From Coleofasciculus chthonoplastes F2-STO-03 (GTDB taxonomy: Bacteria; Cyanobacteriota; Cyanobacteriia; Cyanobacteriales; Coleofasciculaceae), in contig JAVJWO010000030.1 of NCBI GenBank assembly GCA_040222015.1, forward strand, positions 30,324 through 94,323: 64,000 bases of DNA, written 5' to 3'. The notes under the pieces were generated by a model. The model saw nothing but the letters and a program-made list of their open reading frames with translations, ran no database searches and was not told where the DNA came from. This document shows positions 30,546 to 58,426 of the stretch, piece after piece (position 1 is the first letter of the stretch; each line of letters opens with the position of its first letter). Position numbers and translations under genes: made by a program.

Positions 30546-31082
30546 TTAATAAGCATCCTGCAATTCATAGAAGTCGGGCGAGATATAATCCTTCCGCAGG
30601 GGCCAGCCCACCCAATCTTCCGGCATCAAAATCCGCTTCAAGTTGGGGTGTCCTTCATAGACAATGCCAAACATATCGTAGGTTTCCCGCTCTTGCCAGT
30701 CAGCACTCTTCCAAATCCAATAGACGGATGGCACGCTGGGATTGTCGCGGGGTAGAAATACCTTCACCCTAACTTCCTCAGGTTGATCAACATCATCACT
30801 GATCTTAATTAAATGGTAGAAGCTGACCAACTCTTCACCAGGACCAACATCATAACCGCCTTGACATTGCAGGTAGTTAAACCCATAAGCATAGAGAGCC
30901 GTGGCAACGGGAATCAAGACCTCTGGTTGTACCTTAATCACCTCAATTCCCAGGTGATCCGGTTCCATTAACTCGGTTTCAAAGCCATTTTCCTTCAGCC
31001 AGCCATGGACTTCTCCTGTCTCAGCGAGTGAGGATTCTTCAGCGTTCTCTGGTGTCTGTTCTTTGGACTCTTCTTCAGCCAC
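30546..31082 (-). CDS. ndhJ: NAD(P)H-quinone oxidoreductase subunit J
   Basis: [37 protein letters not shown]. Confidence 0.98.
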
Positions 31083-31818
31083 GATTCACCTCCTGCTGTT
31101 GAGACGACTTCAGTGCGGGGGGAACAGGCATTCCCATCGCTTCGGTTAACTCCTTCGGTGGAGTTTGGCGATTTTCAGACCGCAAGTATTGACCTGTGAG
31201 AATATCGGGTACAACCTTCATGCTATGCGTGGTGCTGTAATAGCGGTGGGTTGGACTCAGAGTTGCCCGTTCCTGGATAGACTCATTTGCTACCTTCTTA
31301 CGAAGTTTAATGATCGCATCCATAATCGCTTCCGGACGGGGTGGACAACCAGGAATATAAACATCCACGGGAATCAACTTATCCACACCCCGCACGGCGG
31401 TTGGTGAATCGACGCTGAACATTCCCCCGGTAATCGTACAAGCCCCCATCGCCATCACATATTTAGGTTCTGGCATTTGCTCATACAGACGCACCAGTGC
31501 TGGTGTCATTTTCATCGTGATCGTGCCAGCAGTAATAATCAAATCCGCTTGTCGGGGACTACAACGGGGCACCAATCCAAATCGGTCAAAGTCAAACCGA
31601 GAGCCAATCATCGCCGCAAATTCAATAAAACAGCAGGCGGTGCCATACATCATCGGCCACAGGCTGGAAAGCCTAGCCCAGTTGTAGAGATCGTCTACTG
31701 TCGTCAAAATCACGTTTTCTGAGAGATCCTGCGTCACCTGAGGACGACTAATGGGATTAAGAATTTTCTCTTTGGGTTGCGGCTTTTGGGGTGCCGCGTT
31801 TGCTGTATCTGTATTCAT
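31075..31818 (-). CDS. ndhK: NAD(P)H-quinone oxidoreductase subunit K
   Basis: [31 protein letters not shown]; start placed at MNTDT (31818) because sequence upstream belongs to the inserted element. Confidence 0.96.
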
Positions 31819-32267
31819 CCAAATATTCGCGACTGGATACCTCATCCATAGATAGTATGGGCAGTTAGAAAGCCGCGCCTCCTAGGTAAAGTACAAAAAG
31901 CTCTAAACCCCTACCGCCTTGGATTTACTCGCCGACGTTCGACATATTGCGCTTGCCTGTCGCCTGGGTAGTTACTTTCCTCGTGCTTTTAACCTGTACG
32001 GATATGGGTTATTTGATTGGGCTTGCGCCCCTCCCTTTCGGGGTAACGTTAGCTTCGCCAAAGTTATGTCTCGGTACTTTCTCCAACACACTGGCTTTTC
32101 CCTATAACCTGTTTAATGCTGGAGTTGTAGAGCTACAGACTAGCTACGCATCCGTAGGTACGAACTTTAACACTTAGACATAACGTAGTTCAAGGCAGAA
32201 CTTAGGCTGGTAAACATAGGCTTTTGGAAAGCCTCTTCCATGCCTAAGCATGGACGGGGTAGTTTAC
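31819..32267 (-). mobile_element. Non-autonomous IS200/IS605 (IscB-type) element with no ORF
   Basis: Subterminal hairpins CCATA-GATAG-TATGG and TCCATGC-CTAA-GCATGGA; flanked by TTCAT on the + strand; removal restores an ndhC/ndhK overlap. Confidence 0.8.
32030..32267 (-). ncRNA. HEARO / IscB omegaRNA scaffold
   Basis: Minus strand: GTAAACTACCCC..ACCAGCCTAAG..AACTACGTT..ACCTACGGATGCGTAGCTAGTCTGTAGCTCT..ATTAAACAG..CAGTGT..ATAACTTTGGCGAAGCTAACGTTACCCCGAAAGGGAG; motif order matches HEARO RNAs found upstream of iscB (recognised by eye). Confidence 0.85.
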
Positions 32268-32626
32268 GACCATTCTAAAGCTCCTTTGCGCCAAGCGTAA
32301 ACGAGGGCAACGACGAGAATTGCAATAAAGATGAGTGCTTCGATAAACGCTAGTAGTCCTAGCTGATTGAATGCCACTGCCCAAGGATAGAGAAAAACGG
32401 TCTCCACATCAAAAATCACGAAGACCAGGGCAAACATATAGTACCGGATATTGAACTGAATCCAAGCGCCCCCAATCGGTTCCATGCCAGATTCGTAGGT
32501 CGTCCGGCGTTCGGGGGAGCGGATGCTGGGTCGCAGCAGCTTCGAGGCTGCCAGCGCTAGAACTGGGACTAAACTGCTTGCCAGTAAGAACCCTAGGAAA
32601 TATTCGTAGCCGCTAAGAACAAACAC
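32264..32626 (-). CDS. ndhC: NAD(P)H-quinone oxidoreductase subunit 3
   Basis: [35 protein letters not shown] start. Confidence 0.98.
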
Positions 32627-32983
32627 AATAGGTAAGTATCCCTAAACCTTGTCGTTATTACTTCTTTACATTCTTTTACCCATTATAAGGGTGGTTGGTT
32701 TTCTGCAAATCGAAGCGGGTCAAGTTTTTCCGAGACGATGAGATTTCCGCGATCGCGCCTCTTTAAAAGACACACCTAGCGACTTGCGATAATCCGGAAA
32801 AATGGGCGGGAATATTTTTCCCGAAATTTCGCGAAAATGCCTGTAAATCAGGCTTCTATGATTAACCCCCTGTAGGGGCGACCCGCTTGCATCAATTAAC
32901 GACTGTATCCACTCAATTAGGTCGGGTCGCCCTATACTCAATTAGGTCGGGTCGCCCTATACTCAATTGGCAGATACGATAAT

Positions 32984-33037: not shown

Positions 33038-36000
33038 TCACACCAACTGGTTATAGTCCAGATAAGCCCGAATCACCTGACTATTAACTGACGGACAGAC
33101 AATATGCGTTCCAGCTAAACCCGCTAACGTATTCTGAGAGTCAAACGCCTGAGAGACTAAAGCCGCCGTTTCCAGATAGGGGCGTTGGTTTTCACCCACC
33201 CATTGAGTAAACAGGAACACCAACGGACTCAACGCATTGTCAGGCTGGGAACTGGCCACCTGAACCAGCTTGTCTTGCCACGTAGAATAATCCATCCATT
33301 CAATCGGATGACCGATCGCCCGGATTTCGTCCACCAATTGCCGTAAGGACACCATCTCCGGACTGACCAAGTGAAAGGCTTGACCGCATAAATCCGGTTG
33401 CTGGGACAGATGGATCATCGCTTGGGACACATAATCTACAGGAGTCAAGCTCAGATTTAAGTCCAACTCCGGCGCACTCCCCAATTGAATCAACCCTTTA
33501 ATTAATCGGTCAATCAGATCCCCCTGTTGAGACGCCCCAGTTTGGCTATGTCCCGTAATCATACCCGGTCGGTAAATCGACGCCGGAATCCCCCGTGCGT
33601 GTGCCTGTTTTACTAACTTCTCACCCACCCATTTACTTTGTGCATAACCATCAGATAAGTCATCCCCTGACTCCAAATCATCCTGTTCTAAAATCACCGA
33701 CATCTGAGCATAGCGCGGCGATTGAAACACATCCAGCGTTGAGACAAAGTGAACAGGTTTTACCTTAGTTTTACTGGCTAATTTGAGAATTTCCTGAGTC
33801 CCCAGGACATTAGCGGCTCGCAAGGCGCTGTAGGGATAAATTAAGTTTACAAACGCCCCATTATGATATATGCAGTCAATCTCGCTAGTTAACGCCTCGT
33901 ACTGCGACTCCGATAGTCCCAACCGAGGTTGGGCTAAATCGCCTAACACAGGGATAACTCGCGAGTCCAGCTTATCGGGTGAGAGTAAATAGCGGTTGAA
34001 GCTGGCGGCAATTTTTTGCTGACCCGCCTCTAAAGTTTTGGCACGCACTAAGCAATAGACAGTAGCATTCGTATGTTGGAGTAATTCCTGCAATAAAAAC
34101 GCGCCGAGAAAACCTGACGCACCTGTGATCAAAATCTTTTCCGGTGCGGTGTCCGGCTGACGATAAGGTTGGTCTGGATAAATCGTCTCATCCAAAACCG
34201 CATCGTTAGCTAAATTAGTGACTGCGATTGTACCCGTCACCGTCGTCCCATCCCCTTCAGGGTGAGACGAATCAGCCTCAGTCTTAGCGGTAATCGTTTG
34301 AGCCAGTTCCGCCACAGTCGGCGCTTCAAACAGAGCAAACAAGGGTAACTCCACTTGGAACGTTTCTCGCACCTGCGATAACAGTTGCGCCGTCAGTAGC
34401 GAATGTCCACCTAATTCAAAGAAGTTGTCATACACACCGACGCGCTCAACATCTAATACAGTTGCCCAGATTTGCGCTAACTCCTGTTCAACGGGGGTGC
34501 GCGGTGCGACGAAGGTATCCTGAGCCACCTGTTGCGCCTGGTTCGGGTCAGGTAACGCCTTGCGATCGACTTTACAGTTGGGTGTTAGGGGCAAACTATC
34601 CAGTAGCACAAAGGTCGAGGGAACCATATAAGTCGGTAACTTATCACTCAGGAACGATCGCAACTGCGCCAGCGATAATCCTTGAGTTTTGACGATATGT
34701 TCAAGGCTTTGATGGATTTGTTCCTGCTGAGTAGGTGTCGTCTCAAAAATTACTCCAGCGTTTTCCTCAACGTGCCAAACCACAGTGCCTTGCAGCCACA
34801 AGAGATTTTTCACTCCTGGTAATTTTACCCGCAAAAGTACGGGTTGGTTGTTGTGCCAAAATGTCGGGGTGAGTGCCTTTAAGCTAATCCCGTTGCGGCT
34901 GAAGTTTTGCGTCATCACTTCCACTTGTTGACCCGACTCAAATTCAGCACGACCATTGATCTGGAGGGGAACACGGGGTTCTGTCCGCAGATTTCCCAAG
35001 CTGCGATGGAGTTTCGCCTTCTGGCTGGTTGTGGTATCAAACTTAACGCCCACATAGTCTTCAAATTGCCAGACAATTTGACCTTGCAACCATAACGGAG
35101 TTTCGCCTCCGGGTAATTGTAATCGGAGCAATAGGCGTTGATCGATTTGCCAGCAGTTAGCCGTTGTTGCCTTGAAGCAAATCCCCTCATGGCTGATATT
35201 TTGCGTCATCACCTGGACTTTTTCACCGGACTCCAATTCCGCCAGACAATTAATGTGCAGCGGGATTCGGGGTTCTTGGCGGCGTAAATCATGAACCACT
35301 AATCCCTGGGTTTGAGCAATGTGTTTGATACTCTGACGTAAACGTTGCTGTTGGCTGGAGGTGGTGTCTAGGGAAACGTCTACCCATTCCAGGGATTTTG
35401 TGGCGATGGTTCCAGTGAGTTGGAGTTCATCGGGGACACCCGGAAACTGGCAGCGCAGTGTCAACGATTGACCGTTTCGCCAAGTGGCGGGACCATGAAG
35501 TAAACGAATACTATTGACCGAGAAATTGCTGGTGGTTAATTCAAGGTCTGGATTCCCCTCACACGCTACCCAACACGTCGTTTTTAGGGGAACATTTTCA
35601 ACGTCTAAGTCGCTGACGAGATAAGCAACCAAGCGCTTTTCGCCAGAACTGTCATCACGGGCGACAACCACCGCGTCTCGGATACCCGCATGTTGGTAGA
35701 GGGCAGATTCAATCTCGCCGAGTTCAATCCGAAAACCGCGAATTTTGACCTGGTGATCCAAGCGACCTAAGCATTCCAGAGTCCCATCTGGTAAGTATCG
35801 GGCTAAGTCTCCGGTGCGATAGAGACGGGCACCTGGTTCTGAACTAAAGGGATCGGGAATAAATCGTTCATCAGTTAAGTCAGGTCTATTAAAATATCCT
35901 CTTGCCAAACCAACGCCACCAATTAGTAATTCTCCCGGTTCTTCCACAGGTACAAATTTAATCGGGTCAGATGAGTTTTGCTCAGGATGAGCCAGATAAA

Positions 36001-37090
36001 TTTGGGTATTGGCAATGGGGCGACCGATGGGAATCGGTTTGTCCGCCGATTCTACTTGATGCACGGTTGACCAGATTGTGGTTTCCGTCGGTCCGTACAT
36101 ATTCCACACAGAAGCACTGCGTTCTAGGAGTTGACGCGCCAATTCGCGAGACATGGGTTCTCCACCACAGAGAATTTTAAGCTGGGGATTTCCCTGCCAC
36201 CCTGCGGCTAACAGCATCCGCCAAGTGGCGGGGGTAGCTTGCATGACGGTAGCACCGGATTCTTGCAAAACTGGGATTAACTGAGTCGCATCGGCGGCGA
36301 CATCTCGCGTCACTAAGACAATATCAGCGCCAACGATTAAGGGTAAATAGAGTTCCAATCCGGCGATGTCGAAGCAGATGGTAGTTACAGCCAGCAGAGT
36401 GTCATCGGGAGTGAGTCCAGGGGCGACACTCATTGAGGTGAGGAAATTTACTACCCCACGATGCAGCAATTGGACGCCTTTGGGTTTCCCGGTTGAACCG
36501 GAGGTATAAATCGTGTAGGCTAAATTGTCGGGGGTGACACCACTGTCTAAATTCTCTGGACTATGTTTAGCAATTGCCTGTTGATCTCTATCTAAGCAAA
36601 CGACTTGGACTTGGGTGTCGGGTAATCTTATGAGTTGGTCTTGTTCGGTGACGATGACAGAGACTTGGGAATCCTCAATCATTAACGCTAATCGTTCTTG
36701 GGGATAGGCGGGATCAAGGGGAATATAAGCGCCCCCGGCTTTGAGAATTCCTAATAAACCAACGACCATATCCAGCGATCGCTCTAGACAAATTCCCACC
36801 AGTACATCGGGTCTAACTTGGAGGGTTTGTAAGTAGTGGGCAACTTGGTTGGCGCGGCGGTTCAACTCCCGATAGGTTAGGGTTTGATCCTCAAAGCGAA
36901 TCGCGATTTTGTCGGGTGTGCGATCGCTCGCTTGTTCAATTAACTGATGAATACAGTAATCGGCTGGATAGTAGGTTTGGGTTTGATTTAACTGTTCAAG
37001 TCGCTGCTGTAATTCACGTTTTTTGCTTGTATCAGGAACACCGTGGAATTGCTCAATTTCTAATGATGATTGAAAGGAACGCTCTATCAT
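33038..37090 (-). CDS. Stand-alone NRPS-like A(PilZ-interrupted)-T-R reductase, predicted glycine-activating
   Basis: [44 protein letters not shown], then about 310 aa of three PilZ-like repeats, then LPTYMVP and [18 protein letters not shown]; R domain TGASGFLG and GYAQSKW; no condensation domain. Confidence 0.93.
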   Translation of the reverse strand: [1350 protein letters not shown]

Positions 37091-58352: not shown

Positions 58353-58426
58353 TCGGGATGACAGGATTTGAACCTGCGACATCCTGCTCCCAAAGCAGGC
58401 GCGCTACCAAGCTGCGCTACATCCCG
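58353..58426 (-). tRNA. trnP: tRNA-Pro(UGG)
   Basis: CGGGATGTAGCGCAGCTTGGTAGCGCGCCTGCTTTGGGAGCAGGATGTCGCAGGTTCAAATCCTGTCATCCCGA folds as a cloverleaf, anticodon TGG, CCA not encoded. Confidence 0.97.

Follow-up and report, generated by a model that had tools for sequence, protein, structure and literature searches.

A protein-less element with a HEARO/omegaRNA scaffold at the ndhC-ndhK stop/start overlap of Coleofasciculus chthonoplastes

Introduction

How can a mobile element lie between two overlapping genes of an essential operon and break neither of them? The question is raised by a 449-nt insert in the ndhC-ndhK-ndhJ operon of the cyanobacterium Coleofasciculus chthonoplastes F2-STO-03, within a stretch of 64,000 nt that we refer to throughout as the window (GenBank assembly GCA_040222015.1, contig JAVJWO010000030.1, positions 30,324 to 94,323 of the forward strand). 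The insert occupies window positions 31819-32267 on the minus strand, exactly between ndhC and ndhK, which overlap in its absence. We are confident that it is a non-autonomous, protein-less deletion derivative of an ISC/IS200-IS605 element, carrying the scaffold of an omegaRNA and inserted at the motif N/ATGA (the slash marks the point of insertion). That the element currently guides a nuclease is a separate claim, which we would place near, but on the lower side of, an even balance; the explanation as a whole, with identity and guiding weighed together, seems to us probable. A literature search, judged by title and abstract, found no paper describing the ndhC-ndhK insertion, and comparable cases may be held in the supplements of the study of cyanobacterial ISC elements by Kapitonov, Makarova and Koonin (2016; PMC4810608) or of the preprint by Meers et al. 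(bioRxiv 10.1101/2023.03.14.532601). What we take from these two sources, from a commentary (PMC11610941) and from a review of OMEGA systems (PMC13565253) refers to those parts of them that were available. Genomes, contigs and loci are designated, where needed, by G, C and L numbers, G000 being the window's own genome, a draft in 219 contigs.

Results and Discussion

The insert leaves both genes whole

The genes and the insertion point are as follows.

32268..32626, minus strand: ndhC, as far as the TC of its final (Ser) codon; open reading frame (ORF) called as 32264-32626 (Pfam PF00507, E 8e-39)
32264..32266, minus strand: stop of ndhC (TAA), donated by insert bases 2-4; other copies of the element usually start GTCA, here GTAA
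31813..31818, minus strand: target and target-adjacent motif (TAM) ATGAAT (N/ATGA), which is the start codon of ndhK; its TGA is the ndhC stop in the empty allele
31075..31818, minus strand: ndhK (Pfam PF01058, E 3.5e-28)
30546..31082, minus strand: ndhJ, third gene of the operon (Pfam PF00329, E 6e-42)

By their Pfam matches ndhC, ndhK and ndhJ form a co-directional trio. Read on the minus strand, ndhC runs to ...GAA TGG TC and is completed by an insert-derived G TAA, the third base of its last Ser codon and its stop both coming from the insert, which starts GTAAACTACCCC; at the other end, ...TATTTGG (in longer form ...GAATATTTGG) is followed directly by the ATGAAT of the ndhK start. An earlier note on this DNA had described this layout (ndhC, a HEARO-like scaffold, TATTTGG and then the ATGAAT of ndhK) and had claimed that the insert supplies the present stop of ndhC while both genes stay intact; the sequence and the ORF list agree, the insert opening with G-TAA. 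The ATG of ndhK is retained because the insertion lies 5' of ATGA, and the NdhK N-terminus, MNTDT, is common to the whole genus. The TGA of ndhC is lost and is replaced by reading TC-G TAA into the element, and the NdhC C-terminus, ...ALEWS, is kept in 31/31 genomes. With the usual GTCA start, ndhC would extend by 30 further codons, as read from the sequence. The start GTAAAC is identical in all six occupied genomes (counting a remnant in G003) and GTAA opens one other copy, on C71; this stop-making variant may have arisen after insertion or may already have been present before it. The ends of the insert are fixed to the base, the preceding base being unlike its last and the following base unlike its first, and there is no target-site duplication (TC[449 nt]ATGAAT in the occupied allele vs TC/ATGAAT in the empty one).

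Empty sites and a second hit in relatives

The NdhC protein was searched against 30 relatives and the ndhC-ndhK junction was read in each. Among the nine genomes of the genus, five are occupied (G000, G001, G004, G005 and G007, with an insert of 449-452 nt at the same position), one carries a remnant (G003) and three are empty (G002, G006 and G008). All three unoccupied genomes read GAATGGTC/ATGAAT, which matches to the base the empty junction that the earlier note had predicted. The empty G006 and G008 are identical to the occupied ndhC end over at least the last 38 nt; G002 differs at position 8 from the junction. Outside the genus the insert is found in 0/21 loci, 15 of which have the four-base stop/start overlap TGGTCATGA, the remaining six having a different stop or a spacer. 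Moreover, G003 has been hit twice: its first element has lost 314 nt of the scaffold by internal deletion, and between the last base of the remnant and the same ATGAAT lies a second, unrelated omegaRNA with an internally shortened iscB (L038, gap positions 137-1290). This second element is an independent insertion at the same motif and is the strongest single evidence for the target.

The occupied form is also present in RNA libraries, contiguous with both genes. In library X1 a single contig of 2,126 nt, which runs from ndhK across the insert into ndhC, covers 31300-32664 with 21 differences; in X2 and X5, each junction is bridged by contigs over 31300-32072 and 32056-32700. Contig depth, and the lack of an empty-form joint in the four runs compared, carry no weight as evidence here. 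No terminator-like site was found inside the insert, the scan counts being at chance level. A promoter scan returned two promoter-like sites against 2.0 expected by chance; there is one upstream of ndhC, and one whose end falls 5 nt short of the insert is given no weight. With at least 26 related repeats in a draft assembly of 219 contigs, a repeat copy could in principle have been wrongly joined into the ndh operon. Such an artefact would have to account for the same insert at the same base in five independent assemblies of different species, for the remnant in a sixth and for the RNA-library contigs from three studies, with a nearest paralogue only 84% identical, and we give it practically no credence.

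The target motif often lies where host genes start

The ndhC/ndhK boundary alone is proven by empty sites, the other element ends being inferred from homology: among copies of the same subfamily, homology reaches a common end, continues through ATGA and then stops. ATGA follows 17 of the 18 ends so placed in the genome, against 0.44% of genome positions (67,767 sites). In the ...CCAATTTTCG family it stands after 7/7 copies (the fifth base being A in four, G in two and T in one); both copies of the C177/C178 pair are followed by ATGAA; left-end modules of the ndh element's type are followed by ATGA in three of four cases and by ATCA in the fourth; and in a second IscB clade ATGA adjoins the projected boundary at four of five ends and, at the fifth (C208), lies one base further on. 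An N/ATGA target, no duplication and a 5'-GT terminus are described for cyanobacterial ISC elements (Kapitonov et al., 2016, PMC4810608), and in Geobacillus the left end is preceded on its 5' side by the TAM TTCAT, which reads ATGAA in reverse complement (Meers et al., 10.1101/2023.03.14.532601).

In this genome, elements of the family often sit exactly before host start codons, in sense orientation. At eight of the 17 ATGA-bearing ends the ATG opens an ORF of at least 100 aa, compared with 585/5000 random ATGA sites (binomial P = 3e-4). This pattern fits the orientation bias, in favour of the direction of the gene upstream, that Meers et al. (10.1101/2023.03.14.532601) describe, and it also fits guide transcription driven by the host.

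Anatomy of the 449-nt element

From its right end to its left, and with the flank that precedes it, the element is divided as follows.

32268..32287, minus strand: presumed guide template, the last 20 nt of ndhC, so placed by its position directly 5' of the HEARO start and by published geometry
32043..32267, minus strand: omegaRNA scaffold (Rfam HEARO, RF02033), the right end, element positions 1-225; cmscan 141.9 bits
32030..32042, minus strand: terminal hairpin CCCGAAAGGG(AG), element positions 226-238, just past the Rfam model; from a comparison of 12 copies
31905..32029, minus strand: segment conserved among ORF-less copies, element positions 239-363; blastn to other copies stops at about position 363
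31819..31904, minus strand: left end, 86 nt, element positions 364-449, ending ...GAATATTTGG; absent from empty sites, with a predicted subterminal hairpin

The match to RF02033 covers model positions 1-211 of 211, is not truncated and, at 141.9 bits (E 1.5e-29), lies above the gathering score of 83; it takes up 225 of the 449 nt, the first part only. The earlier note had called the insert HEARO-like and had named a covariance-model search as the check, and this full-length match above the cut-off bears it out. No further RNA family, ribozymes included, was found in the region (Rfam, up to E = 1). The first six bases of the scaffold, GTAAAC, pair with GTTTAC, the conserved helices, with the 5' terminal stem and the pseudoknot strands among them, retain their pairing, and few non-canonical pairs are flagged in the RF02033 alignment. 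The C-to-A change that makes the TAA is matched by a G-to-U change in the partner strand (GUAAAC/GUUUAC vs the consensus GUCAAC/GUUGAC); the first stem is thus kept because both of its sides have changed. Beyond the model, the pairs of the terminal hairpin (alignment columns 301-312) show compensatory changes, and iscB-bearing copies in this genome have a matching hairpin followed by GGAG and the iscB start codon, which suggests that the scaffold proper ends at about position 238. RF02033 is described as being without the downstream structure (Meers et al., bioRxiv 10.1101/2023.03.14.532601).

The segment at positions 239-363 is 70-89% identical to at least eight other protein-less copies. Within it, positions 290-352 (window 31916-31978) bear a weak likeness in tblastn to the C-terminal coding end of IscB (C77 IscB aa 415-435, E 0.05; C95 aa 200-220, E 0.8), and two relatives, L066 and L068, have an IscB C-terminal fragment after or overlapping the segment. 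It is probably a scar, left when an internal deletion took out iscB. With eight copies aligned, RNAalifold predicts hairpins and a long-range stem in the segment, with some two-sided changes, and of the 83 pairs predicted across the alignment 36 show one compensatory change or more; on these models the segment may also have a role as RNA. An omegaRNA of 363 nt, with the 138 nt past the Rfam model read as RNA structure, was considered and toned down, because iscB copies have their start codon right after one short hairpin and the segment is partly IscB-like. At the left end, the fact that other copies cease to match at about 31905 had raised the suspicion that the element ends there and that the last 86 nt are native ndhC-ndhK spacer; this was ruled out by the empty sites, which are without all 449 nt. 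The predicted fold of the left end is weak (CCATA..TATGG, -7.0 kcal/mol) and the predicted hairpin of the right end is strong (CCATGC..GCATGG, -15.3 kcal/mol). The element has the 5'-GT terminus of ISC, and its 3' terminus is GG.

Relatives of the element and candidate trans-acting proteins

The genome has 35 HEARO matches, 26 of them above the cut-off, and the ndh copy is the fourth best of the 35. Their 5' flanks all differ, as they should if the guide comes from the flank; the exceptions are copies duplicated at the ends of contigs. By our own reading of the matches, about 18 of the 26 above-cut-off copies are without a full iscB. The ndh element is among the protein-less: a profile search of the contig that carries it gave no RRXRR (IscB) or Y1 (TnpA) match, in agreement with the earlier note, which had seen no iscB or tnpA ORF in the element. 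Genome-wide there are 18 RRXRR matches. Of six iscB ORFs scanned with Pfam, four (on C31, C77, C193 and C12) show complete RRXRR and HNH domains that score above the cut-off; the one on C214 has a weak HNH match only and the one on C95 is a fragment. There are 17 Y1_Tnp matches, about seven of full length. The earlier note had also proposed looking in the genome for iscB and tnpA with the ends of the insert; intact iscB and TnpA genes do exist elsewhere, and no tnpA-linked element with these ends was met around the strongest 10 of the 17 Y1_Tnp regions. In other genomes, the closest iscB-linked omegaRNAs are 78-82% identical over element positions 53-227, and their IscBs are about 65% identical to the C77 IscB.

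Searching for an 11-nt core of the left end with one mismatch gave 139 matches, four of them real end modules. Related left-end modules lie at C153:88298, C178:92318 (which ends in CG) and C179:32126, and two of the related modules directly follow a GTCAACTACCCC start, forming mini-elements of about 54 nt. These mini-elements (C178:92287-92340 and C179 near 32126) consist of the first 12 bases of the omegaRNA, one hairpin and a left end like that of the ndh element; ATGA stands directly after the C178 copy, ATCA after the C179 copy. The second element of G003 likewise has relatives in G000, on C216, C178, C173, C87 and C55.

A proposed origin and a proposed guide

We propose that a full ISC element lost iscB by an internal deletion, which would have left the omegaRNA scaffold, a short 3' remnant of iscB and the 86-nt left end. 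A Y1 TnpA supplied in trans presumably inserted this derivative directly 5' of ATGA, where the stop of ndhC overlaps the start of ndhK. As the element lies in sense orientation in ndhC-ndhK-ndhJ, read-through transcription would yield an omegaRNA with the last ~16-20 nt of ndhC as its guide, a guide length that is an assumption. In the empty allele the guide-matching sequence reads GAATGGTC+ATGAAT, in the occupied allele GAATGGTC+GTAAAC. Because the TAM, ATGAA, follows the guide match in the empty allele alone, an IscB from elsewhere could cut empty alleles only, and if the cut were repaired with an occupied copy as template, the insert would be restored or spread. This geometry, with the 3' end of ndhC as guide and ATGAA as TAM, had been put forward in the earlier note and agrees with what is available of Meers et al. 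and of PMC4810608. That the element is transcribed and an omegaRNA processed out of the ndhCKJ mRNA, that a resident IscB takes up this RNA, and that cleavage and homing follow, we infer from the sequence.

Divergence and a mosaic tract

In all ten pairs of occupied species the insert differs at 3-7 of 449 nt (0.7-1.6%). Third codon positions of ndhC and ndhK together differ at 25-52 of 366 (6.8-14.2%), first and second positions at 0.3-1.1%, and in the neighbouring genes G000 is 83-96% identical to the others. Across 52 genomes of the family the best non-orthologous copies are 84-87% identical, so that there is no near-identical master copy for repeated reinsertion. In a tree of 1.4 kb of flank, the empty G008 is sister to the rest (support 97), the occupied G000 groups with the empty G002 (85) and the empty G006 with G003 (80); because occupied and empty genomes pair (G000/G002), the presence of the insert does not follow the flank tree. 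An alignment that took in 1.2 kb upstream of ndhC, a region that is not syntenic in several genomes, was dropped.

On the flanks, a single haplotype that extends from about -108 in ndhC to +44 in ndhK is common to the five genomes with an intact insert, with two singleton differences only. Within it, NdhK residues 10, 12 and 13 are replaced (AAPQKPQP vs AAT/SQQQQP; codons 8-13, window 31779-31796, minus strand) in all five of these genomes, and the three replacements are absent from the three empty genomes and from G003. Outside the tract, G000 resembles the empty G002 and G007 the empty G006. Nine triplets were scanned with a permutation test, of which eight were valid (one was invalid beyond +741 by an indel and was redone on the coding sequence). 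In seven of the eight valid triplets the best window straddles the junction, and in the eighth it lies elsewhere; the permutations reaching the observed statistic numbered 1/2000, 8/2000, 0/1000, 1/1000, 7/1000, 13/1000, 42/1000 and 200/1000, the last not significant. The low divergence at synonymous sites of the flank is not explicable by constraint on the insert. On the simplest reading of these sequences, recombination has recently moved an occupied tract some 600 nt long between lineages; an IscB-made break or ordinary recombination may have driven it.

The same low divergence could be taken to mean that the insert has been domesticated as a cis element of the ndhCKJ mRNA, which uncouples translation or serves as a stability or processing site, and is held by purifying selection on the host. 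Its sense orientation in the operon, its retention in five species at very low divergence, the lack of a terminator-like site inside it and the linked changes in the first 13 codons of ndhK would suit such a role. However, three of the nine members of the genus and all 21 outside loci examined work without the insert, G003 has lost the scaffold and later gained another element at the same spot, the site is the ordinary ATGA target of the family, and selection on the insert cannot explain the low synonymous divergence of its flanks. We consider domestication improbable.

Guiding element or inert relic

A number of observations weigh against the explanation that we favour, in which a deletion derivative may still guide a nuclease. 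The 3' terminus is GG, vs the CG of ISC1-1_MA (PMC4810608, in its available part) and of most other copies here, and the element, folded as a single sequence, does not stand out (z -1.77). The genome has no copy of the element's subfamily that bears an iscB, and the resident iscB-linked omegaRNAs are about 75% identical over about 144 nt, so that compatibility in trans is unproven. No tnpA-linked element with these ends was met within 2.5 kb on each side of the strongest 10 of the 17 Y1_Tnp regions, where only an unrelated neighbouring copy was encountered. The RNA support consists of contigs, which are silent on ends, strand, processing and binding and may reflect DNA carry-over. The mosaic tests compare related genomes at a single 1.1-kb locus, so their figures overstate independence, and one triplet is not significant (200/1000). 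Taken alone, the fact that the insert has diverged so little could be due to any sort of constraint.

Several of these points speak for an inert relic, that is, a dead deletion derivative that guides nothing and is tolerated since both reading frames are kept, its low divergence and shared haplotype being due to ordinary recombination or to a linked sweep in ndh. Neither the element nor its subfamily in this genome has a cognate iscB, and no tnpA-linked ends match in the regions searched; moreover, the 314-nt deletion of the scaffold in G003 is without visible harm to the operon, and the three replacements at the N-terminus of NdhK in the occupied haplotype could themselves have spread. On the other hand, the scaffold is intact and, at 141.9 bits, among the best four of 35, its first stem has been kept through a two-sided change, and neutral sequence of 449 nt as old as the species split would be expected to have diverged by about 7-14%, compared with the 0.7-1.6% observed, while the best non-orthologous relatives are 84-87% identical. 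On balance we find the inert relic unlikely, although it deserves more weight than domestication, and we prefer the ISC/IS200-IS605 derivative with a possible guiding function.

A bolder extension of the favoured explanation is that a guide-only element acts as a natural gene drive across species. An omegaRNA-programmed IscB would cut empty junctions, and repair would copy the element together with about 50-110 nt of flank; such co-conversion would explain the ~600-nt tract of low divergence in otherwise diverged backgrounds. The 5' end of the element would have become co-adapted with its host, one change making the ndhC stop and a second keeping the stem, and the ATGA target would steer such elements to the base before host start codons (8/17), a niche that is harmless and transcribed by the host. 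We offer this as a speculation that is rather doubtful, if conceivable.

Comparison with known systems

HEARO was reportedly first described by Weinberg et al. in 2009. The guide function of HEARO, or omegaRNA, was shown by Altae-Tran et al. (2021; via the commentary PMC11610941), and stand-alone chromosomal omegaRNAs are mentioned in the available part of the same commentary. The ndh element resembles HEARO/omegaRNA RF02033 in its full match to the model, its 5' terminal stem, its terminal hairpin before the place of iscB and its variable 5' flank at the guide position. Unlike iscB-linked HEARO, it has a segment of ~125 nt with an iscB 3' remnant of ~20 codons in place of iscB; the missing iscB does not make it new in kind, because stand-alone omegaRNAs are in print. 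With the cyanobacterial ISC elements of Kapitonov et al. (2016, PMC4810608), as far as the available text goes, it shares the ATGA target, the lack of a duplication, the 5'-GT, the non-autonomous state and empty sites in relatives; the subterminal hairpins of ISC have counterparts here that are predicted, strongly at the right end and weakly at the left. Those elements encode IscB and end in CG-3', whereas the ndh element encodes nothing and ends in GG-3'; CG ends like theirs are found in other families of this genome.

A further parallel is with the palindrome-associated transposable elements (PATEs) of Meers et al. (10.1101/2023.03.14.532601), a preprint which, in its available part, describes an IscB omegaRNA bounded by the right end and PATEs that carry omegaRNAs. 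Like these, the ndh element is protein-less and combines transposon ends with a guide RNA, the TAM at the left end is the transposase target (TTCAT), the guide would come from the flank of the right end with the scarless donor joint as the sole target, and the element is oriented like the gene upstream of it. The system of Meers et al. is from Geobacillus and comes with experiments, whereas the ndh element is known from sequence alone; unlike that system, again as far as the preprint was available, the ndh site is a stop/start overlap in an essential operon and comes with a comparative signal of spread between species. There is also a likeness to IStrons, in which an IS200/IS605 element is combined with a group I intron, in that harm to the host gene is limited and the guide RNA is kept. 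IStrons, however, are spliced out of the mRNA, whereas the ndh element avoids harm by its position and by the stop codon that it donates (compare the available part of the OMEGA review, PMC13565253).

IscB omegaRNAs, the N/ATGA target and protein-less derivatives being already in print, the element itself is no surprise. The locus is of interest as a compact natural example of how harm to the host is avoided: the target doubles as a stop/start overlap, and the element mends the stop that it displaces. What is new beyond laboratory work is the second independent hit on the same motif and the short tract, apparently shared recently, in five species, and this tract is the footprint expected if homing or co-conversion directed by a guide RNA works in nature. 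If such homing or co-conversion holds, the junction, with a known guide, a known TAM and both empty and occupied alleles, would be a ready test bed for trans-acting omegaRNAs and for the persistence of guide-only elements.

Other observations

Some omegaRNA copies of this genome are themselves interrupted by palindromes. A 24-nt palindromic repeat with about 100 perfect genomic copies (e.g. C18:60170-60193), often in inverted pairs, lies inside some of them, and the same repeat is found at positions 153-176 of the second element of G003 (L038); it is probably a small repeat of the kind of a miniature inverted-repeat transposable element (MITE) or a highly iterated palindrome (HIP). A second type of palindrome, GAGACGCGCCATGGCGCGTCTC, lies in different loops of the omegaRNA copies on C48, C49, C120 and C95 (L024, L006, L026 and L021). 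The copies at C165:89501 and C18:60025 stop at the same internal position (...CATCGAA(C)) and are then followed by ATGAG, a common break-off that may be an alternative end or a parallel truncation. Two further HEARO copies, C71:28046-28298 and C152:1760-1975 (L008 and L005), lie directly upstream of paralogous genes for proteins of about 530 aa; a domain scan of the one on C71 shows a type 2A encapsulin shell protein (SrpI-like) to which a cyclic nucleotide (cNMP)-binding domain is fused.

In the window itself, the sole other Rfam match is a tRNA gene at 58353-58426 (minus strand). The gene upstream of ndhC (33038-37090, minus strand) encodes a protein of 1,350 aa with an AMP-binding domain, two PilZ stretches, a PP-binding domain and a terminal reductase (NAD_binding_4); PilZ domains, which bind cyclic di-GMP (c-di-GMP), look unusual within such a carboxylate reductase of the nonribosomal peptide synthetase (NRPS)-like kind.

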